From NCBI GenBank assembly GCA_016218805.1, contig JACRCW010000076.1, positions 49,439 to 69,438 on the forward strand: a stretch of 20,000 bases of DNA, in the 5' to 3' direction. Position 1 is the first letter of the stretch. The number at the start of each line of letters is the position of its first letter. Positions 9,657 through 19,267 of this stretch are shown piece by piece. The notes under the pieces were generated by a model, which searched no databases, had not been told where the DNA came from, and saw only the letters and a program-made list of their open reading frames with translations. The position numbers were made by a program, and so were the translations under genes. The DNA comes from Deltaproteobacteria bacterium. GTDB taxonomy: Bacteria > Myxococcota > JACRCW01.

Positions 9657-10046
9657 TCAGCCCCGCCCCATCAACGGGTGGTGCGAAATGGCCACGCGGT
9701 TCCCCTCCGGGTCGCGCGCGTACGAGGTGTGGTCCGTGCGGCCCTCCACCGGCGCCCCCGCCGCCTCCAAGGCCGCCTCCAGGCGCGCGCGCTCCGCCTG
9801 GTCCACGCGCACCGCAATGAGAAACGGCCCCGCGCCCACGCCCCACACCCGGTGCGGCGCTTCGTCCGTGTGCTCCACCATCAGCGCCGCTCCCGCCCCC
9901 AGGTCCAGCCACACGCTGCGCAGGCTCCCGTCGTCGCGGAAGTGCCGCTGCTGTTCAGTGAACCCCAGCACGTCCCGGTAGAACGCCACCACGCGCTCCA
10001 CGTCCCGCGCGCCCAGCGCCACGTGGTGCAACACCCGCCCGCTCAT
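9657..10046 (-). CDS. VOC family protein (glyoxalase/bleomycin resistance/dioxygenase)
   Basis: LHHVALGARDVERVVAFYRDVLGF and YARDPEGNRVAI motifs. ATGA overlap with the upstream aminotransferase. Confidence 0.92.
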   Translation of the reverse strand: MSGRVLHHVALGARDVERVVAFYRDVLGFTEQQRHFRDDGSLRSVWLDLGAGAALMVEHTDEAPHRVWGVGAGPFLIAVRVDQAERARLEAALEAAGAPVEGRTDHTSYARDPEGNRVAISHHPLMGRG

Positions 10047-11185
10047 GCCACCGCCCAGCCCTTGCGGCGCAGCAGCCCGCCCAGCCGGCGGATCCCCTCC
10101 ACCACCACCGCGTCGTCCTGCGCAAAGCTGATGCGGAAGAACCCGTGCGCTGACGGACCAAATGCCTCCCCCGGCACCATCACCACGTCCTCCTCGTCCA
10201 GCAGCGTCTCGGACAGCTCTTTGGTTGTCACCGGCAGCTTGCGCAGGTCCAGCATCACGTAGAACGCGCCCTCCGGCCGCGGCGGGGTAAGCCCCAGGTG
10301 CTCCTTCACCGCCGCCAGCGTCACGTCCAGCCGCCGCCGGTAGATGTCCCGGTGGCGGAACAGCGCCCGCCGCTCAAACGCCGCCAGCGCAATGTACTGA
10401 GACATGGACGCCGCACACGTGGCGCACAGCTGGTGCAGCTTGAGGGCCGGCGAGTACGCGTACTCAGGCAGGATGGTCCAGCCCACGCGCAGGCCCGTCA
10501 TGGCGCAGTTCTTGGACATGCTCCCCACCGTGATGGCGCGCCGCGTCCACCGCGCCGGGGAAGGCGCTGGCGTGTCGCCGTGGTGCAACTCGCGGTAGAC
10601 CTCGTCCACCAGCAGCGTCACGCCGTTGTCCTCCGCAATGGCCGCCAGTTCCCGCGCCACCGGCTCAGACAGGGCCCGCCCCGTGGGGTTGCCCGGGGAC
10701 ACCACGCACAGCATCCGCGTGGCGGGTGTGAGCGCCGCGCGCACCGCGTCCGCTCGCAGCGCAAAACCGTCCGCGGGGTCCATGGGCACGCTCACCACCC
10801 GCGCGCCGAACAGCCGCGCAATGGGCCCGTAGATGTTGAACGCGGGGTCCAGCACCACCACTTCGTCACCGGGGTTGAGCAGCGCCGCCAGGCTGATGAA
10901 CACCGCCTCCTGGCTGCCCTGCGTCACCAGGATGCGCTCCGGCGCGGCCTCCACGTCGGAGCGGAACGCCGCAATGTGCTCGCGCAGCTCCGCCAGCCCC
11001 GCGTTGCGCGTGTAGCCCTGCGGCCCGCTACGGAAGCGCTTGAACCCGTCATCCACCAGGTCCGCGTCCGGGTGGATGGACGGTTCCCCCAGGCCCAGGT
11101 TGAGGGACGTGGGACGTTTGCGGTCATTCAGGGCCCGTATGAATGACGGGGGTATCTGCGCGAGGACCTGGTTGACGGGCTCCAT
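10043..11185 (-). CDS. Pyridoxal-phosphate-dependent aminotransferase, class I/II (aspartate aminotransferase family)
   Basis: LNLGLGEP, YTRNAGLAELRE, SPGNPTG, DEVY, PLP-lysine motif SMSKNCAMTGLRVGW, PEGAFY, PGEAFG...FFRISF. GGAG RBS upstream. Confidence 0.95.
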   Translation of the reverse strand: MEPVNQVLAQIPPSFIRALNDRKRPTSLNLGLGEPSIHPDADLVDDGFKRFRSGPQGYTRNAGLAELREHIAAFRSDVEAAPERILVTQGSQEAVFISLAALLNPGDEVVVLDPAFNIYGPIARLFGARVVSVPMDPADGFALRADAVRAALTPATRMLCVVSPGNPTGRALSEPVARELAAIAEDNGVTLLVDEVYRELHHGDTPAPSPARWTRRAITVGSMSKNCAMTGLRVGWTILPEYAYSPALKLHQLCATCAASMSQYIALAAFERRALFRHRDIYRRRLDVTLAAVKEHLGLTPPRPEGAFYVMLDLRKLPVTTKELSETLLDEEDVVMVPGEAFGPSAHGFFRISFAQDDAVVVEGIRRLGGLLRRKGWAVA

Positions 11186-11255
11186 GCCGCTCCCTGTAGT
11201 GGCGACGGGGCCCGCGGGGAAGCGCCGGCCGTCCCCGCTGTGGCATCATGGCCCC

Positions 11256-11855
11256 ATGCGACCCATCCTCCCCCCCGCCCTCCTGCTGCTGGCCGCCGGC
11301 GCCGCCCACGCCCAGGACCTCCGTATCCAGTGCCCATCCGGTACCCGCGCCGTGCTGGAGAGCGAAACCACCGTCCTGTGCAAGCCCAAGACCGCCCCGG
11401 CCCCGGCGGAACCCGCGCCAGCCCCGGCGGAGCACGTGGTGGTGCAGGAGGGCCCGGTCCGCACCACCGTGGTGGGCAGCGGCTCCATGGAGCTGACGGG
11501 GCTGCATTCGGTCCCGGAGGTCTGCGGCCTGGGCACGCTGGAGGATGACGTGGTGGAGGCCGCCAAGGAGGCCGTGTACCTGGCGGTGAACCACTGCCTG
11601 GAGGAGACCGAGGCCGTGGCGCCCGTGCGCCCGCCGCGGTGGGTGGGCTTCAAAGTGGAGGCGGTGAGCGAGAAGAGCCACACCGTCACCGTCCCCCCCG
11701 AGGCGTGGGCGCTGCCGGTGCAGACCTGTTTGCTCAAACGGCCGCCGCGGTTGCCCAAGCTGGTGCGGGGGCGGAGCTTTGTGGCGTACTACCGGATTGT
11801 GGCAACGCCGCAGGATAAGCCGCCGCCGCCCCCGTGCGTGGCACAGCGGCCGTAG
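11256..11855 (+). CDS. Secreted hypothetical protein, possible AgmX/PglI-like (TonB-C-like) C-terminal domain
   Basis: Signal peptide MRPILPPALLLLAAGAAHA-Q, small Cys-paired domain, Pro/Ala linker, then a C-terminal domain with two Cys (AVNHCLEE...VQTCLL...P..VAYYRI). GC-rich third codon positions. Divergent from the aminotransferase. Confidence 0.7.
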   Translation: MRPILPPALLLLAAGAAHAQDLRIQCPSGTRAVLESETTVLCKPKTAPAPAEPAPAPAEHVVVQEGPVRTTVVGSGSMELTGLHSVPEVCGLGTLEDDVVEAAKEAVYLAVNHCLEETEAVAPVRPPRWVGFKVEAVSEKSHTVTVPPEAWALPVQTCLLKRPPRLPKLVRGRSFVAYYRIVATPQDKPPPPPCVAQRP

Positions 11856-12068
11856 GCACACTACAGCGCTTCACGCCGTCGAGAGTACTGTGCATTCGGT
11901 TCGGAATCCAAGATGTGTCAGACTGGTGGAGGCCCCGGTATTGGGTCGCGTTGGGACAACATCGATCCAACGGATGTAGACCATATTTGGTGTATGGGGT
12001 GGTGCTTCCTGCGATTGGGTGGAGTGGGGGCAGCGGTTTGTCTGTATCCAGTTGAAAGGGGGCACGCG

Positions 12069-12758
12069 ATGGTGAGGTGCACTTTGACCGCCGCGGTCTT
12101 GGCTGTGCTGTCTGGCTGCCGCTGCGATTGCGACCCGGCGGGGCCATTTGGAAACGACATGGCGGTTCCGCCTGAGCACGCATTCCTTGCCGAGTTCGCA
12201 GACAGCGCGAACTTCGGCGGTCTCTTCTCTGTCAGCAAGGCAGTCGCCTGCGCCGAGCAGCCGACTTCAGACCCCTCGTGTGTCTGGATCGGCGAACGGG
12301 TCAACATTGAGCCCGTCGAGGTCTATTTCGGGGTCCCATCCACCTCGACGTACCATCCGGCTGGCGATTTCTATCGGGCGCTGCGCATGTACACCGGTTC
12401 CGAGGACGTGCGGGTTTATTTTGTGTTGACGGCTAGCCCCATCTCGCTAGACGCATCCGTTCCCGGCACGGTCTGTGGTGTCAGCACCGATGGGATTATC
12501 AGCAGGCAGAATGACGCACCTCCCTGGGTGCTGTCCCCAAACGGACAAATGGCGGTGGACTCCAGCTGCATCACCAGCCAAGCGCGCAATATTGGCGATG
12601 GGGGAGTGAACGAAGAGGGCCGCACACTTCGAGAACTGGTGGAAGGCAATCCGTGGTGCACGTTGCCTGTGTCGGTGGTGGAGGGGGATTTGTCCGCTTC
12701 TGCAGCGAGAGTCCCAACGAGGGGCGGCTTGGATCCGAGTGGCGGTTTCTGTCGCTGA
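12069..12758 (+). CDS. Cys-rich hypothetical lipoprotein in a lower-GC patch
   Basis: ATG at 12069 preceded by GAAAGGGGG. Signal MVRCTLTAAVLAVLSG-C with lipobox LSGC. Several further Cys residues. Codon usage has more A/T-ending codons than flanking genes. Confidence 0.65.
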   Translation: MVRCTLTAAVLAVLSGCRCDCDPAGPFGNDMAVPPEHAFLAEFADSANFGGLFSVSKAVACAEQPTSDPSCVWIGERVNIEPVEVYFGVPSTSTYHPAGDFYRALRMYTGSEDVRVYFVLTASPISLDASVPGTVCGVSTDGIISRQNDAPPWVLSPNGQMAVDSSCITSQARNIGDGGVNEEGRTLRELVEGNPWCTLPVSVVEGDLSASAARVPTRGGLDPSGGFCR

Positions 12759-12861
12759 ACCAGCCCCCATCCCGCGCCTTTCCTGAACAGGCTGTCACCC
12801 GCTCCCGCCGGCGGCAAAGGCGGACCACTACCCACATCTGACGGCACAGAGGCAGACGGCG

Positions 12862-13168
12862 GGCGGTCGGCGCGCAACCGTAGGCCGGTCGAACAGCGAC
12901 TCCGGCCCATCGAACACCGATCACCTGCCCTCCGGCCCCCCACCGCCGGCACCCCGGAGCGCGCGCGAGGCCGCTCGGAACCCCACTGCCGGGTGCCCGG
13001 AGCCGCTCTGCAGCCCACCCGGACGCCCAATGCAGGGTGCCCGGAAGTGGTCTGCAGGACCCTCCGGCGCCCCGTTGCAGACCCTCCGGAAGCGCTCTGC
13101 AGACCCCCCGGAAGGCCGCTGCGGAGCCGTCGGACCTACATTTCAGAGGGGTCGATGGGCGATTTCGG
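12862..13168. repeat. Degenerate tandem array, ~14 units with 22-bp period (consensus approx. NNNNN-YCGGA-N7-TGCAG), intergenic
   Basis: YCGR motif at 12867, 12889, 12910, 12932, 12954, 12975, 12997, 13019, 13041, 13064, 13086, 13108, 13130 and 13152 (spacings 21-23, mostly 22). Best units: 12992 ggtgcccggagccgctctgcag, 13014 cccacccggacgcccaatgcag, 13036 ggtgcccggaagtggtctgcag, 13058 gaccctccggcgccccgttgcag, 13081 accctccggaagcgctctgcag, 13103 accccccggaaggccgctgcgg. Confidence 0.85.
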
Positions 13169-13320
13169 GTGGAAAACCGCCCGCCGATTGGCCTGCAAAC
13201 CCATCCCGACCCCCATCCGCCGGATGACGGAGCAATTCCGGGTTGTGCGCGGGTGAGCCTGGCTGGCAGCTTCCCCCGCCCAAATCAGGAAGCACCACAG
13301 ACCACGGGAGGGTCGCCACC

Positions 13321-14106
13321 ATGCAGCTCGCAGAGATCAGTCAGTTGGACCTGTACTTCCTTGCTCAACTCGTCGGCAGCGCCCTGAAGGACCACCACGG
13401 CGTCATCCACCGCTTCATCAAGGAGGAACACGGCGAGCACTGGTTGGATGCCTACAACGCCGGCACCCGTGACTTCCGGGCGTCCGTGGATTCGGCCATC
13501 AAAGAGGAGACGGAGGCAAATGCTGCGGTGGGGGAGCAGGCGGCGCTTCGCGGCAAGTTCACGTCATGGCGGCGCCTTTTGGAGAACTGTGCCAGGCGGG
13601 CGGGCGTGCAGACCGAGGTGGACCGGCTGCTGAAGGCAGCGGGCTACGGTGACGGGACCCCCCGCAGCACCAAGGAGTTCAAGGATTTCCTGGTGATCGT
13701 GGGTCCCAAGTTGAAGGTGCATGAAGCCCGCTTCCGCAAGCTGGGCGCGTCTCCCAAGGCGCTGGCGTTCCCGGGGACGATGAGCGTGGCGCTGGACACG
13801 GCCGGTGCCAAGGTTGTCAAGGAGGTGGCAGAAGCCCGGACTGCGCGGGAAGCAGTGCGCACCCAATACGACGCGATGATCACCCAACTGCGCCTGGTGG
13901 ACCACGCCGCGCAGAGTGCCAGCGCCGATGCGGCGCTTGAGGAGGACAAGGAGGCATTGGCCAGGGCCAACGCGTTGCTGAACCTGCTGGACGCCGCCGA
14001 GGGTCAGGCCAAGGTGGAGGCGCGCAAGAAGGCGACTGAGGAGGAGATCCCGGAGAGCATCACTCTCCCGGTCAACCCGGATGCCGCCACGCCCGAACCG
14101 GCGTGA
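13321..14106 (+). CDS. Hypothetical all-alpha protein (261 aa) with an internal duplication
   Basis: ATG at 13321 with GGGAGG RBS at 13306-13311. Amphipathic helices throughout, no signal peptide or TM segment. Two similar halves (LKDHHGVIHRF/LKVHEARFRKL, AIKEETEANAA/VVKEVAEARTA, RRLLENCARRA/LRLVDHAAQSA). Acidic Pro-rich tail. Confidence 0.85.
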   Translation: MQLAEISQLDLYFLAQLVGSALKDHHGVIHRFIKEEHGEHWLDAYNAGTRDFRASVDSAIKEETEANAAVGEQAALRGKFTSWRRLLENCARRAGVQTEVDRLLKAAGYGDGTPRSTKEFKDFLVIVGPKLKVHEARFRKLGASPKALAFPGTMSVALDTAGAKVVKEVAEARTAREAVRTQYDAMITQLRLVDHAAQSASADAALEEDKEALARANALLNLLDAAEGQAKVEARKKATEEEIPESITLPVNPDAATPEPA

Positions 14107-14200
14107 CCGGGCAGACCGCGCGGAAGCGCACCGGATAGGGGAGGCCGCGTTTCCAACGCTTCAGCGCGCCCCCTCCCATTTGGCTGCATTCCCCCGGCGG
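14107..14200. terminator. GC-rich hairpins between convergent genes (possible termination or RNA stability elements)
   Basis: gcgc-GGAA-gcgc tetraloop hairpin at ~14118-14129 and an imperfect stem gggagg...cctccc at ~14139-14177. No clear U-tract. Confidence 0.3.
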
Positions 14201-17200
14201 TCACGGCATGGCAACGAACCGCGCCCCGGCCGTGGCCGAGTTCCCGACGTCATCCATGATCTCCACCTGCCATTGGTAGCCCGTTCCGGACGTGAGCGCC
14301 GGCGGTGAGGCGCGGCCGTCATAGTTGTACGTCACCGACAGCGTGCCCGCGGCGAGGTCCCACGCGTCCCAGAACCGCGGGTATCCGGCGTCCGGCGACA
14401 AATGGACGTAATACGTATGCACCGTGGGCACCGGGTTGGGCGCCAGCCAGGTGAAGGTGGGCACCAGCGTGCCGGCCGCGTTGCCCAGCGGGGAAACGGG
14501 CCGGGGCAGAACCAGCGTCTCTCCCACGGTCCCCGTGACCCGCTCCACCGTGCCGTCGTCATACAGCACGTTGAACTCCAACGTGGCGCCCGAGGCGGTC
14601 TGGCTTCCATCCCAGGAAGAGGCCATCCACGTGGGTGGCGCCCAGTCCTGCGGCCCGCGGGCCAGGGAGAGGTCCACCGGCAGCCCGCCCAATCCGCCCG
14701 CCTGCTGGCTGACCGCCACCGGCTGGCGGGCCTGCCCGGCCACCTCCAGCTGGAGACCAAACCCCTCATTGATGAACGCCGTGCCGGTGTACTCCGCGTT
14801 GTGGCGCGTCATCACGGCGGCGCGGGTGTCCGGGCCGGGCATGGTCAGCGCGGGCAGCGTGGCGTCACCGTTGATGGCAACGGTGCGTCCCTGCAGGCCG
14901 GTGGCGCCCACCAGGTCCCCGCGGTCCAGCACGCCGTCGTGGTTGGTGTCCAACAGCGCCACCACCGAGTACCGCCCCGGCTGCACGCCAGGCACGCTGA
15001 ACGGCACGGTGCCGGAGGCGCCGGGGACGCGCGTGAAGTAGTCGCCATTGGGGCCGCCCTGCAGCAGGACATACAGCGTGCCGCCCGCGCCGCCGGGCAG
15101 CGTGACGGTGCCCTGGACGGTGTTGCCCACCGGTGCGGGGCCCACGCGGAAGCGCTGCGGCTGGCCGGTCGGGCCTTCGCGCCCCTGCACCAGGGGTGCG
15201 GCGGTGACCCAATATTCCCCGTCCGCCAACGGGGCCACCATGGCGGCGTGCGCGCGGCCGGCGGGCACGGTGCGGACCCAAATGGATTCACCCGGTCCCG
15301 CGGGCGTGTCGCGGCCCACGTAGAGGCGGAACGCGTCGGCCATTTCGCGCTGCATGCTGTCCAAAGGGGACTCAAACCGGACCATGGCAACGCCGGGCGC
15401 GGAGTTGGCCCACACCCAGCGCGGCGGGGGGAACGCCACCGGCCCCGGGTCCGTGATGGTGACGTCAGCACCGGTGACGGAGGAGGACAGGTTCACCTGC
15501 GCCGTTCCCGTGGGGCTGGAGGACACGGGGAACTGCGAGCCCAGCGTGTCCACCCACGCCACCACGGTGTAGTTGCCCGGGCCCCAGCGCCCGCGCAGGT
15601 GGTAGGGGCCCGGTTCGGCCAGGCTGGTGGTGGCCATCAAACCATCACCGGCGGCGCCCCACGTCAGGCCCACGTAGATGCGCCCGCTGGCCCCGCGCGT
15701 GTAGTTCACCGTGCCGGACACGCTCCGCACGGTCCCCACCACAGTGACGGTGGCTGTGGCCGCTCCGCCCGCGTGCGTGGCCACCACGTGGTAGCTGCCC
15801 GTGCCGGACGCCGGCGCGGTGTACACGCCCGCCGCGGACACCGTCCCGCCGGCAGCGCCCTCCGTCACCGTGAAGGTCACGGTCTTGTCCGTGGAGCCGG
15901 TGACCAGGGTGGTGAACGCCTGCGTGTCACCCAGCGGCACGGTTGCCAGCGCGGGGTGGATGGCAACGGTGATGGTGGAGGTGACGTGAACCACCGCGGT
16001 GCCGCTGGCGGAGCCGTCCGCGGCGCTGGTGGCGCGCACCGTGTAGTCCCCCGGCGTGGTGGGTGCCACGTAGTGCCCGTTGGCGTCCACCGTCCCGCCG
16101 CCGGTGCCATCCACGCTCCAGGTGACTGCGGTGTTGCCGCTGCCGGTGATGTCGGCGCGGAAGTCCGCCGGTTCGCCCGGGGCCAGGGTGGCGGCCGCCG
16201 GGGCAAGCCGCACGGACACCGGCGGCTGCAGCAGCACGCGCACCGTGGCCACGGCGCTCTTGTTGGTGTCCGCGCTGGACACCGCCCGCACGTGGTAGGT
16301 GCCCGGCGTGGGCGGTGCGGTGTACGTCCCGTCCAGCGCCACCACGCCGCCGCTGCTCTCCACCACCGACCAGGTCACCGCCGTGTTGCCGGACCCGGTG
16401 ACGGTGGCGGCGAACTTCTGCAGCTGGCCGCCGCCCAGGACCACATTCAGCGGCGCCAGGACCACTTGCACCTGCGGAGCATCCGTGACGGTGACGGTGG
16501 CGCGCGCCACCTGGTTGGCATCCACGCGCGCGGCCGCCACCACGTGGAAGGTCCCGGTGACGTTGGGCGCCGTGTACAGCCCTTCCGGCGTGACGGTCCC
16601 GCCGCCGGTCTCCTCCACGCTCCAGTCCACCCCGCCGCCGCCGGTGACGGTGGCCAGGAACACCTGCTGGCCCAGCCGGTTCACGGTGGCGGTGGCGGGT
16701 TCCACGGTGACCTGCACCGGCAGGGAGAACGCCGCGCCCACGGCGGCGTAGTTGCCGTCCTGGTCGCTGGCCTCCAGGCGCCAGCGGTAGCGGCCGCCGG
16801 CCACCAGCGGTTCCATGGCGCGGCCGTCAAAGTCGTAGGTGAAGGTGGTCATGGACGGGTCCAGCGAGTCCACGCGCCACAGGTCCCCGTTGCCGCCATC
16901 ACGGGACACGCTCATGGCGTAGTGCAGCGCGCCGGGAGCGCCCGCCGCGGGCGCCCACGCAAACTGCACCGGCGCCGCCACCGTCCCCTGCGGCGAGGTC
17001 AGCGTGGGCAGTTCCAGCACGCCTGACACGCGCGGGTGCAGCGTCACCACCGTGTTGTCAGCCAGCGTGGCGTCCACGTCATAAACGTCACCCACCACGG
17101 GGCGCCGCAGGCCGGCGTAGAGGTCCGTGACCACCGACAGCGCCCCAAACTCCGCATCCGCCACGCCCAGGTCCCGCGGTGGCGCCGCCTGCGGGCCGCC

Positions 17201-19180
17201 GGTGAGCACCGCCGCCACCACACGCTGGAGGTTGGACGCCGCGCCCAGGTGGACAAAGTAGCCCTCCGTCCCGTCGTCAGCCCAGTGATAGGTCTGCGCC
17301 AGGGGGAGCGCGTCCCCAGCCGGCAGCCGCAGGGTGGGCACGGTGGCGTCCGCGCCGGAGACCGTCACCACGGGCCGGCTGGGCACGGTCGTCGGGTCAC
17401 CGGGGCCCATGGTGCCGTCCTGGTCCTGGTCCACAAACGCAAACACGTACCAGTTGCCGTCAAACGCGCCCGTGATGCTGAACGCCTGCGCGCCGGCGGG
17501 CTGCACCACGCGCTGGACGAACGCGCCCGCCGCCTCCATGAACATCACGACGTACAGCGGCCCGGTGGCGGTGATGCCCGTGAGGTCCACCACGCCCTGC
17601 ACGCGGTGCCCGCCGGTGCGCGGCCCGGTGGTGACGGGCGGCGAGGCCGCGGACGGCGCGCCCTCCGTCCCGTGGTTGTACGCGCGCACGCGCACGTAAT
17701 AGCTCCCGTCCGCCAGCTCCAGCACGGCAAACGGCGCGGTGGTGGGCAGGCGCCGGCTCGCCGCAATGGTGCCAAACGACGACGAGGTGGACGCTTCCAC
17801 CAGCACCTCGTCCGCCAGCATGCGCCCGTTGTTGTCCCGCGCCACGGTCCACCCGGCAATGATGCAGCCCTCCGCCGGGATGACCATCTCCAGGCCCGCG
17901 GCCCCGGGCGCCACGCTGGGCGGGGCGTTCATCTGGACCACCAGCCCGTTGACGTCGTTCCCCTGCAGGTCGAACTGCACCTCGCCCATCGGGTCCACCG
18001 CTTCGTTGAACGCGCCGGTGTCCTGCACGTCCATCCACGCCGCCACGCGCATGAAACCGCCGCGTTCAACGCCGCGGATGGTGAACGCGCCGGGCGCGTC
18101 CAGCGCGGTGCCGCCCATGGGCCGGCGCCGGTCATTGTCAAACACCACCACAAAGACCCGGCCCGTGTCTGACCCGGTGAACTGCACGGTGCCGGACACG
18201 GAGGGCAGCACCACCTGGATGGTGGCCACGTCGCTCTTGGAGGGGTCCTGTTCGCTGGTGGCGCGCACGTGGAAGCTGCCGCCCAGGTACGGCGCGGTGT
18301 AGGCGCCCAGGGCGGTGATGGTCCCGCCGTCAGGTTCCACCACGCTCCACGTCACGGCGGTGTTGGACGCGTTGGTGACGGTGGCCATGAACGTCTGGTT
18401 CTCCCCGCGGCGCAGCTCCACCTGCCGCGGGTTCACCGTCACGGAGACCTGCGGGGTGGAGGTCACGGTGATTGTGGCCTCGCCAGACGCGGTGGGCGCA
18501 ACGCGGCTGGTGGCGCGCACGTGGTAGGTCCCCGTGGTGCTCGGGGCGGTGTACAGGCCCGCGGCATCCACCGTGCCGCCGCCGGTCTCCACCACGCTCC
18601 AGTCCACCGCGGCGTCACCGGTCCCGGTGACCACCGCCAGGAACGCCTGCTGCTGGTCCGGGTTCAGCGCCGCGGTGGCGGGCTCCACGGCCACCGTGAC
18701 GTTGAGGACCGTGCCGCTGCTGCCTGCCCCCGACGCGCTCACCGCACCCGACGAGGCGGCCCCGCCCGACGACGACGCCGCGCCTGAGGAGGCGACGCTG
18801 CCCGAGGACGCGACGCTGCCCGACGAGACGATGCTGCCCGAGGACCCGACGCTGCCCGACGACACGACGCTGCCCGACGACACGACGCTGCCCGACGACA
18901 CGACGCTGCCCGACGACGCGGTCAATCCCGAGGTGGCCGCCGCGGAGGAGGCGCCGCTGGAGGCGGCCAGGGAGCTGGCCGTGCCGGACCCGCCGCTGGA
19001 GGAGCCGCCACCCGAGCTTCCCCCGGACACCGACCCGCTGGAGGACGACGACGAGGATGCCCCGGAAGAGCCGGAGGATGAGCTGGAGCTGCCGTTGTCG
19101 TCGTCATCCGACGGATTGGGGCAGCCCACCAGGGCCAGCAGGGAGAGGGAGAGGACCAGCCGCGAAGTCACCGTGCGCAT
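14201..19180 (-). CDS. Large surface lipoprotein (~1659 aa) with a Ser/Gly linker, six Ig-like (Big_2-type) repeats and two copies of an FN3/beta-sandwich module
   Basis: Signal MRTVTSRLVLSLSLLALVG-C (lipobox LVGC) and a Ser/Gly-rich spacer. Six repeats of V.V.P....L......F.A.VTG..N.AV.WSV.E..GGTV...G.YTAP...G.YHV.A.S. Duplicated module starting VSGTV.(F/Y)T....GR(V/I)(F/Y)V. DxDxDG-like motifs DQDQDGTMGPGD and DTNHDGVLDRGD. Confidence 0.9.
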   Translation of the reverse strand: MRTVTSRLVLSLSLLALVGCPNPSDDDDNGSSSSSSGSSGASSSSSSSGSVSGGSSGGGSSSGGSGTASSLAASSGASSAAATSGLTASSGSVVSSGSVVSSGSVVSSGSVGSSGSIVSSGSVASSGSVASSGAASSSGGAASSGAVSASGAGSSGTVLNVTVAVEPATAALNPDQQQAFLAVVTGTGDAAVDWSVVETGGGTVDAAGLYTAPSTTGTYHVRATSRVAPTASGEATITVTSTPQVSVTVNPRQVELRRGENQTFMATVTNASNTAVTWSVVEPDGGTITALGAYTAPYLGGSFHVRATSEQDPSKSDVATIQVVLPSVSGTVQFTGSDTGRVFVVVFDNDRRRPMGGTALDAPGAFTIRGVERGGFMRVAAWMDVQDTGAFNEAVDPMGEVQFDLQGNDVNGLVVQMNAPPSVAPGAAGLEMVIPAEGCIIAGWTVARDNNGRMLADEVLVEASTSSSFGTIAASRRLPTTAPFAVLELADGSYYVRVRAYNHGTEGAPSAASPPVTTGPRTGGHRVQGVVDLTGITATGPLYVVMFMEAAGAFVQRVVQPAGAQAFSITGAFDGNWYVFAFVDQDQDGTMGPGDPTTVPSRPVVTVSGADATVPTLRLPAGDALPLAQTYHWADDGTEGYFVHLGAASNLQRVVAAVLTGGPQAAPPRDLGVADAEFGALSVVTDLYAGLRRPVVGDVYDVDATLADNTVVTLHPRVSGVLELPTLTSPQGTVAAPVQFAWAPAAGAPGALHYAMSVSRDGGNGDLWRVDSLDPSMTTFTYDFDGRAMEPLVAGGRYRWRLEASDQDGNYAAVGAAFSLPVQVTVEPATATVNRLGQQVFLATVTGGGGVDWSVEETGGGTVTPEGLYTAPNVTGTFHVVAAARVDANQVARATVTVTDAPQVQVVLAPLNVVLGGGQLQKFAATVTGSGNTAVTWSVVESSGGVVALDGTYTAPPTPGTYHVRAVSSADTNKSAVATVRVLLQPPVSVRLAPAAATLAPGEPADFRADITGSGNTAVTWSVDGTGGGTVDANGHYVAPTTPGDYTVRATSAADGSASGTAVVHVTSTITVAIHPALATVPLGDTQAFTTLVTGSTDKTVTFTVTEGAAGGTVSAAGVYTAPASGTGSYHVVATHAGGAATATVTVVGTVRSVSGTVNYTRGASGRIYVGLTWGAAGDGLMATTSLAEPGPYHLRGRWGPGNYTVVAWVDTLGSQFPVSSSPTGTAQVNLSSSVTGADVTITDPGPVAFPPPRWVWANSAPGVAMVRFESPLDSMQREMADAFRLYVGRDTPAGPGESIWVRTVPAGRAHAAMVAPLADGEYWVTAAPLVQGREGPTGQPQRFRVGPAPVGNTVQGTVTLPGGAGGTLYVLLQGGPNGDYFTRVPGASGTVPFSVPGVQPGRYSVVALLDTNHDGVLDRGDLVGATGLQGRTVAINGDATLPALTMPGPDTRAAVMTRHNAEYTGTAFINEGFGLQLEVAGQARQPVAVSQQAGGLGGLPVDLSLARGPQDWAPPTWMASSWDGSQTASGATLEFNVLYDDGTVERVTGTVGETLVLPRPVSPLGNAAGTLVPTFTWLAPNPVPTVHTYYVHLSPDAGYPRFWDAWDLAAGTLSVTYNYDGRASPPALTSGTGYQWQVEIMDDVGNSATAGARFVAMP
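18790..18915 (-). repeat. In-frame 18-bp tandem repeat (7 units) encoding SSGS(V/I)(V/A/G)
   Basis: Plus-strand unit acacgacgctgcccgacg is identical three times (18862-18915), with four variant copies at 18790-18861. Confidence 0.92.
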
Positions 19181-19267
19181 GGGGAACCCCTGTTCAGGAG
19201 ACGAAAACGGAGCGGGAATCTGCCCCACGGCGCGGCCAAAGGCCATGCCTGCGGTCACGCCCGGGAC

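Follow-up and report, generated by a model that had tools for sequence, protein, structure and literature searches.

Iterons, such as the 22-bp repeats of R6K or pPS10, lie beside the gene for a Rep initiator, and in the ParR-parC and TubR-tubC systems centromere-like arrays are paired with adaptor proteins. Mycobacterial interspersed repetitive units and other VNTR minisatellites are present as tens of intergenic tandem arrays per genome. REP and BIME sequences, like the repeats of REPIN-RAYT systems, are short, often palindromic non-coding units found in intergenic tandem, with several unit families in one genome; REPINs are described as non-autonomous elements served by RAYTs (PMC3337134, PMC3116915).

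Here we analyse a phased repeat array and the gene behind it in a 20,000-nucleotide stretch of DNA (hereafter the window) from the genome bin G000 (6.4 Mb in 170 contigs, about 72% GC). DNA of the window also occurs in groundwater metagenome runs. The original prediction, made from the letters of the sequence, was that array and gene form an undescribed two-part system in which the protein may recognise or polymerise on the array. The initial observation proves largely right; that it amounts to a two-part system is not established, and several tests weaken this interpretation. In its favour, arrays lie upstream of four of the six intact family loci that we could score, against 1.0% of the genes in G000. 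What is not supported is the notion of a dedicated pairing, against which stand the 71 similar arrays of this genome, copies that consist of the array only, homologs without an array, differing repeat units, the acidity of 17 of 21 family members and a protein that matches no binding fold. Since similar arrays are scattered genome-wide, array and gene are probably not a dedicated two-part machine. To our mind there is an even chance that the array is a REP/BIME-like phased repeat situated in the upstream or leader region of an orphan gene, the two being inherited and copied together as a decaying cassette. The features of the locus and the regions upstream of the related genes are listed in Table 1.

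Table 1. Features of the locus, in window coordinates unless a contig is named, and regions upstream of related genes
Feature	Position	Strand	Evidence or remark
Source window	G000:C35:49439-69438		Contig C35 of genome bin G000
Lipoprotein-like ORF (lipobox LSGC)	12069..12758	+	Context only; immediately precedes the array
Degenerate tandem array, period 22 bp (also read as 44), about 11 units	12883..13137	+	TRF, repeat search, autocorrelation against shuffles
ACCTACAT box at the gene-proximal array end	13134..13141	+	Read directly from the sequences
Non-repetitive leader, from array to start codon	13138..13320	+	Holds the GGGAGGG ribosome-binding site, 13306-13312
Gene for a 261-aa protein, predicted soluble and all-alpha, of a rare uncharacterised family	13321..14106	+	ATG to stop; codon GC, homologs, AF2
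Upstream of C159 gene (G000)			Three 22-bp TRF rows, GTGACCCC units
Upstream of G021:C112 gene			Clean 22-bp array, 15.1 copies, GGAGACCCC and GGCGACCCC units
Upstream of L024 gene (metagenome)			About 13 TTGCAGACCCC units at 21-22 bp, reaching to about 35-60 bp from the ATG
Upstream of G021:C63 gene			No TRF array; scattered TGCAGACCCC and ACAGGGTCC relics
Upstream of G011:C301 gene			No periodic array

The likeness to an iteron locus is apparent: direct repeats of about 22 bp, all in one orientation, lie upstream of a gene in the 230-300 aa range. The measured gap between array and ATG is about 183 bp, which corrects the earlier figure of about 150 bp. However, the protein belongs to no Rep or winged-helix family, and none of the 21 aligned family members matches a Rep protein at E ≤ 1 among the families listed. 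Its predicted all-alpha structure has no beta wing, the locus contains no AT-rich unwinding region (the lowest GC in any 500 bp is 0.616), and the family is chromosomal, occurring at several loci among housekeeping neighbours. The ParR-parC and TubR-tubC systems also have a phased array upstream of the gene for the presumed binder. Here, however, no ParM, TubZ or ParA was found by Pfam near the family genes (11 window ORFs and 23 neighbours elsewhere), and the protein is acidic and far larger than the RHH or wHTH adaptors. The array differs from CRISPR in that its period equals its unit length, hence leaving no spacers; no Cas was found by PADLOC or Pfam, and PADLOC gave no defence match for the window protein.

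The locus lies in a patch of reduced GC content (0.62-0.67 over positions 12001-14000, against about 0.72 in its surroundings). The lipoprotein-like ORF, the array and the 261-aa gene that make up this patch are all on the plus strand, and the patch is flanked by minus-strand genes encoding an aminotransferase (10043-11185) and a 1685-aa Ig-domain protein (14201-19258). Both the GC drop and the gene layout agree with its earlier description as an accessory patch between minus-strand genes. The same description held that no integrase, Rep, ParA or Cas could be recognised, and Pfam indeed found none among the 11 window ORFs scanned.

The presence of a repeat array is well supported. Its units are degenerate, of the type yTGCAG-N5-CCGGAaG, and the sense strand is rich in C (0.44, against 0.32 for G). 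TRF reports four overlapping rows within 12982-13122: the rows with period 22 have 3.0-3.3 copies and 65-75% matches, and a row with period 44 has 3.0 copies, 73% matches and a score of 111. A repeat search places in-register copies over 12928-13122 and, more weakly, two 17-nt copies at 12883 and 12904. Base identity over 12925-13140 reaches 0.567 at lag 22 and 0.552 at lag 44, against 0.325±0.031 in dinucleotide shuffles (z 7.8), and in 1000 shuffles no lag between 8 and 69 gave an identity as high as the one observed. The box at the array end nearest the gene is found again, in the corresponding position, in the partial copy on contig C76, in the related C159, C19 and C67 loci, in L024 and, as ACCTACAC, in the G011 locus; in the form ACCTACA(T/C) it stands at the gene-proximal array end in five lineages.

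The leader has an A+T content of 0.34 over 13141-13320. A consensus scan of 12600-14300 found neither a sigma-70 consensus nor an intrinsic terminator, reading of the sequence by eye gave no convincing match to sigma-54 or ECF promoters, and Rfam returned nothing relevant for the leader and array region. Folded as RNA, array and leader together do not stand out from shuffles (z -1.73). The units of the window array are weakly palindromic, and the array copy on C76 contains near-perfect hairpins (TGCAGACCCTCCGG/GAGGGGTCTGCA). The metagenome contigs matching the locus comprise only a deletion copy of the C76 type and one further array copy, and no indel polymorphism of the array was seen in them.

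Whole-genome TRF places the window array in a larger class of elements. We found 71 merged non-coding arrays of at least 80 bp in G000, with periods of 21-23, 42-45 or 64-66 bp. The choice of period is narrow: non-coding TRF rows number 54, 43, 18 and 21 at periods 21, 22, 42 and 43, respectively, and 7, 9, 4, 3, 2 and 2 at periods 19, 20, 23, 25, 41 and 46. Such periods, about 21.5 or 43 bp, measure a whole number of DNA helical turns, and the window array is one member of this genome-wide non-coding class. The arrays comprise many unrelated unit sequences, several unit families being present at two to four loci each. Their placement in divergent (18), convergent (14) and tandem (26) gaps shows that they are not promoter-specific; those phased on GACCCC, for instance, are found in convergent gaps on contigs C162, C163 and C44. 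In eight multi-copy array families homology ends about 0-50 bp from the array, which indicates that arrays were duplicated on their own. The sole exception is the pair C159/C19, in which homology runs 734 bp into the neighbouring gene of the family studied here. A Y1_Tnp (RAYT-like) match at C54:78377-78601 is located about 500 bp from the array C54:79093-79281, whose family has further copies on C44 and C100; the Y1_Tnp matches of G000 are on C54 and C163, elsewhere than the window gene. Samples from other genomes, too small to decide how widespread such arrays are, gave no array in 165 kb of G029 and two loci in 278 kb of G021.

This class behaves like interspersed elements of the REP/BIME type or like minisatellites. 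With mycobacterial VNTRs it shares the tens of intergenic arrays per genome and the units of some tens of bases, but G000 sharply prefers 21-22 and 42-44 bp and uses many unrelated units. The likeness to REP/BIME elements resides in the intergenic position of the arrays and in their dispersal without flanks, the window array type recurring at C76; the Y1 (RAYT-like) transposase gene beside one G000 array recalls REPIN-RAYT systems as they are described (PMC3337134, PMC3116915). The G000 arrays differ from both in their fixed period and in the small number of loci per family. As to the palindromic units of REP/BIME elements, the window units are only weakly palindromic and the window copy folds no better than its shuffles, whereas the C76 copy has the near-perfect hairpins noted above. 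From REPIN-RAYT systems the locus differs in that the window gene, having no Y1_Tnp match, does not encode a Y1 (IS200/IS605-type) transposase.

The 261-aa gene was described as strongly supported by its ribosome-binding site, and this description is sound: besides the GGGAGGG motif, the gene has a GC content by codon position of 0.68/0.45/0.84, the pattern of real genes in this genome, and its start residue is identical in relatives in a 21-sequence alignment. The protein (P0001) has neither a signal peptide nor a membrane anchor. The proposal of a soluble all-alpha protein is supported by an AlphaFold2 model based on the 21-sequence alignment (pLDDT 95.3) and by the absence of any membrane-like segment (maximum KD19 1.06). 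Long helices are predicted at residues 8-37, 41-92, 145-206 and 210-240, and a small central insert of the model carries the most conserved motif of the family, LLxAAGYGLGSPRSxKExKDFL. The window protein has as its core motifs WRR at 83-85 and, at 106-116, the Gly-rich loop AAGYGDGTPRS; W83 is near-invariant and R84 invariant in the alignment. The conserved positions of the family (W83, R84, G108, G110) include basic residues and the Gly-rich loop that separates two helices. The two internal repeats that had been reported could not be recovered, as the profiles of the N- and C-terminal halves are aligned by hhalign with a probability of only 4% and blastp of the halves gives no match. The LK.H motifs ascribed to these repeats do exist in the window protein (LKDH at 22-25, LKVH at 131-134) but are not conserved in the alignment.

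The protein was said not to be assignable to a family, and our searches agree. No family was found for it in Pfam, NCBIfam, PHROGs or PADLOC, nor by Pfam for any of the 21 aligned members, and the family profile gave only chance rows against PDB sequences (E 0.38-0.6). The Foldseek search that had been recommended, with the predicted model against the PDB, returned nothing at E ≤ 0.001 and so identified no family. Exhaustive alignment of the model gave generic helical bundles. The best matches are the sensor bundles of McpS (2yfa, Z 8.9, rmsd 3.3 over 185 aligned residues) and TorS (3i9w, Z 8.1, rmsd 3.2 over 190), but their scores are below what is commonly seen between helical bundles that are unrelated, the identity is 9%, and the window protein has no signal peptide or membrane anchor. 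Under the same noise level, the generic four-helix matches include ROP (1yo7, Z 7.9), Avd (8ub7_B, Z 7.9) and an S23-family bundle (2rld, Z 8.1). We detected in it no HTH, RHH or winged-helix domain, no catalytic motif, no nuclease or recombinase fold, no Y1 domain, and no significant match in sequence or structure to a DNA- or RNA-binding family or fold. The pI is below 7 in 17 of the 21 family members, and a protein that is acidic, all-helical and soluble suggests a structural or scaffold role. Look-alikes in the ESM Atlas belong to unnamed clusters only, Myxococcota being the commonest phylum; clusters that carry a name, of which DUF6261 (in 16% of one cluster) and PEPcase come nearest, stay below a score of 0.9.

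The family is rare. HMMER retrieved 24 of 1.84 billion representative proteins at E ≤ 0.001, including the query. One of them, P0011, is a 3500-aa cadherin-repeat protein and was dropped as a compositional match, which leaves about 22 relatives (clusters) of 141-299 aa. A profile search for further homologous proteins returned the window's own proteins only. The profile matches three of the four genomes of the class and four of the 401 genomes of a phylum sample, or three of 401 when a weak and short match is set aside (G080, E 7.8e-4). A Rhodobacterales match (L022, E 5e-5 over 68 aa) reads like the N-terminus of an unrelated enzyme and was also dropped. Loci were sought with a sub-alignment of six sequences, which yielded two genome and three metagenome loci; as this search rested on one narrow peptide pattern, the contexts covered represent a minority of the 22 or so clusters.

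Six family loci are intact and have at least 500 bp of upstream sequence: the window, C159, G021:C112, L024, G021:C63 and G011:C301. Two others were not scored, L023 having only 249 bp upstream and L025 being cut inside the gene. TRF finds an array with a period of 21-22 bp upstream of four of the six, whereas an array of the same class is present within 500 bp upstream of 45 of 4355 G000 genes (1.0%, with genes from a GC3-based caller). The survey of homolog neighbourhoods for co-occurring periodic arrays that had been proposed as a check thus gives a positive answer, and the linkage between gene and array is real and beyond chance, although the scored loci share ancestry and are not independent draws. 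Homologs without a flanking array, which had been named as evidence against the pairing, are also found: G011 and G021:C63 have no periodic array, while the other four of the six loci do.

The linkage has further regularities. Array units are always in the same sense as the family gene, and the linkage spans lineages whose proteins are 29-36% identical, an argument for a functional tie of some kind. In the arrays of the window, L024 and G021:C63, whose proteins are about 33-36% identical, a recurring core reads GACCCC or TGCAGACCC. The 71 arrays are flanked by 98 proteins, and no other non-trivial family among these has an array in front of both its members. A strict search for GACCCC-N15-17 repeated three times gave 21 matches in G000, 10 in G021 and 0-6 in the other 399 genomes of the phylum sample, and its reversed control gave zero matches in G000 and G021; within G000, GACCCC is found at that spacing and at about twice that spacing only. 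G000 and G021 are the two genomes with several family members. Because they are kin, this enrichment is not independent evidence, and the GACCCC pattern may be a simple lineage trait.

Gene and array have been duplicated jointly, and several of the copies are decayed. The second intact paralog of G000, on C159, is 29% identical to the window protein. On C19 a copy of this paralog keeps 623 bp of the 3' part of the gene (94%) as well as the array (90%), its first 57 codons or so being replaced by an inserted lipoprotein-like ORF. C97 has the tail only (the last 288 bp of the C159 paralog, at 86%), and C67, in front of an Hsp70 gene, retains just a C159-type array, 84% identical across 236 bp that take in the ACCTACA box. 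On C76 a window-type array (71%) is fused directly to the last 129 bp, or 42 codons, of the window gene (86%). The cassette is about 1.3-1.9 kb long, and its decayed forms are the array alone, the array with the gene tail and the tail alone. In G011, the genes that flank the window locus map to different contigs.

The two G021 paralogs show how the parts of the cassette evolve. They are 88% identical in DNA and 83% in protein, with a dN/dS of 0.30 that reveals purifying selection. A 95-bp 5' element and a 45-bp leader are common to both, but their arrays do not align. The protein thus changes far more slowly than the arrays, a poor fit to the idea that it is tuned to the array of its own gene. 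On G021:C2, lexA is preceded by a third copy of the 5' element, again with a GACCCC array. Upstream of the arrays, all three G021 copies conserve a TTGATC-N17-TAG(A/G)C(A/C) motif; if this were a promoter, transcripts would include the array as part of a long leader.

Could the protein nevertheless be a partner of the array? It might bind the phased repeats, as DNA or as leader RNA, and control its own gene together with other genes bearing the same array, as a regulator or scaffold of the helical-bundle type. The frequency of arrays at family loci relative to the 1.0% background and the constant strand sense of the units are in line with such binding, and so is the difference in unit type between the distant G000 paralogs (TGCAG..CCGGA at C35, GTGACCCC at C159). 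That Hsp70 (C67) and lexA (G021:C2) are preceded by same-type arrays is how a regulon would appear, and the conserved basic residues and Gly-rich loop between two helices point in the same direction. However, two homologs have no periodic array, the 83%-identical G021 paralogs are preceded by different units, and GACCCC-phased arrays also occupy convergent gaps. The acidity of 17 of the 21 members, the absence of HTH, RHH and winged-helix domains and structural matches confined to generic bundles under the helical noise level also speak against binding, which we consider unlikely. We are likewise doubtful of the broader proposal of a new repeat-associated helical-bundle family that reads GACCCC/TGCAGACCC arrays, as DNA or in the leader, and either regulates array-tagged genes (its own, Hsp70 and lexA) or propagates the arrays. 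Propagation would be the essential function if array and gene formed a small autonomous mobile element, whose protein spreads or maintains arrays as in RAYT-REPIN systems while being unrelated to RAYTs. The recent partial copies of the cassette elsewhere in G000 (four places), the copies of the same array type that lack the gene, and the concentration of the family and of GACCCC arrays in the same two genomes fit this scenario, as does the presence of two paralogs with two array types, an arrangement described for RAYT/REPIN systems (PMC3337134, PMC3116915). But the protein has no catalytic motif, nuclease or recombinase fold, or Y1 domain, arrays stand on one side of the gene only, and most of the 71 arrays belong to unit families without a family gene nearby. 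The genome does have a genuine Y1 transposase, which could act on at least some of the arrays, and no target-site duplications or terminal repeats were identified, so that we hold an autonomous element to be very unlikely.

At the other extreme, the array may have no function at all and persist by pure hitch-hiking, the ancestral cassette having held a minisatellite able to renew itself. The quick turnover of arrays beside well-conserved genes in G021, the loss of arrays at two loci, the degeneracy of the window copy (65-75% matches) and its unexceptional RNA fold would all be expected. Such persistence is difficult to reconcile, however, with proteins that are about 30% identical and still share a constant unit orientation, a recurring core and the ACCTACA box; hitch-hiking alone therefore seems to us an improbable explanation. 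In the cassette model that we favour, the window copy of the REP/BIME-like class would occupy the upstream control or leader region of the gene for the long helical-bundle protein, and array and gene have been inherited and duplicated jointly, leaving decayed copies behind. The array most likely acts only in cis on the window gene: it could provide phased sites for a host architectural or regulatory protein, be part of a long transcribed leader, or be a tolerated repeat. The protein's own function would presumably be something other than array binding.

The present evidence documents a rare, confidently folded orphan protein family and a genome rich in phased REP/BIME-like arrays. The statistically strong habit of this new family of sitting behind phased arrays remains of interest. 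If the protein did read the arrays, it would represent a new nucleic-acid-binding fold and would help to explain why intergenic repeats measuring whole helical turns are built in some lineages of bacteria. The linkage is much stronger than would be expected for a tolerated repeat, and it sits uneasily with the cassette model, as do the constant orientation of the units and the GACCCC/TGCAGACCC core in the arrays of distant homologs.

The lipoprotein-like ORF was considered as a conserved partner of array and gene and rejected, since its paralog on contig C70 of G000, 67% identical, is followed by neither an array nor a family gene. Its likeness to the ORF inserted in the C19 copy is weak (E 0.001).

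Across the whole genome bin from which the window derives (G000), we counted 71 non-coding arrays, each 80 bp or longer, of tandem units that repeat every 21-23, 42-45 or 64-66 bp, and the non-coding repeats of this genome show a strong excess of periods 22 and 43. The repeat units of the 71 arrays are of many unrelated types, and the arrays are found in intergenic gaps of every kind. As for the degenerate 22/44-bp array upstream of the helical gene, sequencing runs X1 and X2 both contain, at similar depth, an extra copy with 17 differences over 206 bp relative to window positions 12928-13133 and with different flanks; this copy was not found in the G000 bin.

Examples of the period-defined arrays of G000, and features of the window
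Feature	Location	Strand	Remark
Array	G000:C42:124817-125076		
Array	G000:C44:65283-65528		
Array	G000:C163:42444-42737		
Array	G000:C133:98016-98367		
Candidate ORF	window 11040-11855	plus	GC3 0.89
Candidate ORF	window 11124-11861	minus	GC3 0.72
Lipoprotein-like ORF	window 12069-12758		no known family
Tandem repeat of 18/36/54 bp (as many as 9.7 copies)	window 18742-18920	minus (gene)	inside gene for 1685-aa Ig-domain protein

One 43-bp array (G000:C54:79093-79281), whose family has further members on contigs C44 and C100, lies about 500 bp from a match to the RAYT-like transposase Y1_Tnp (39 bits; C54:78377-78601). This transposase match and the neighbouring dispersed array look like a REP/RAYT-type pairing. 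G000 has a second, weaker Y1_Tnp match at C163:59716-60024.

In the related genome G021, each of the three copies (contigs C63, C112 and C2; loci L007, L010 and L039) has, 5' of the array, a conserved ~95-bp element that contains a promoter-like TTGATC-N17-TAG(A/G)C(A/C) motif. The first two contigs carry relatives of the helical gene, and both these genes share a leader with a 12-bp palindrome, GGCCCGCGGGCC, immediately 5' of the ribosome-binding site.

The lipoprotein-like ORF of the window has a paralog, 67% identical, at G000:C70:8263-8940, and is weakly similar (E 0.001) to the ORF inserted in, and disrupting, the decayed helical-gene copy on contig C19. The two candidate ORFs overlap each other on opposite strands, and neither gave a Pfam match. 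The 18/36/54-bp repeat is probably a coding repeat. On contig C97, a perfect hairpin of higher AT content, GGAAAGTGTCTCATT-N-AATGAGACACTTTCC, occurs twice in locus L013 (G000:C97:19308-22418), just 5' of the helical-gene tail remnant, with about 340 bp between the copies.
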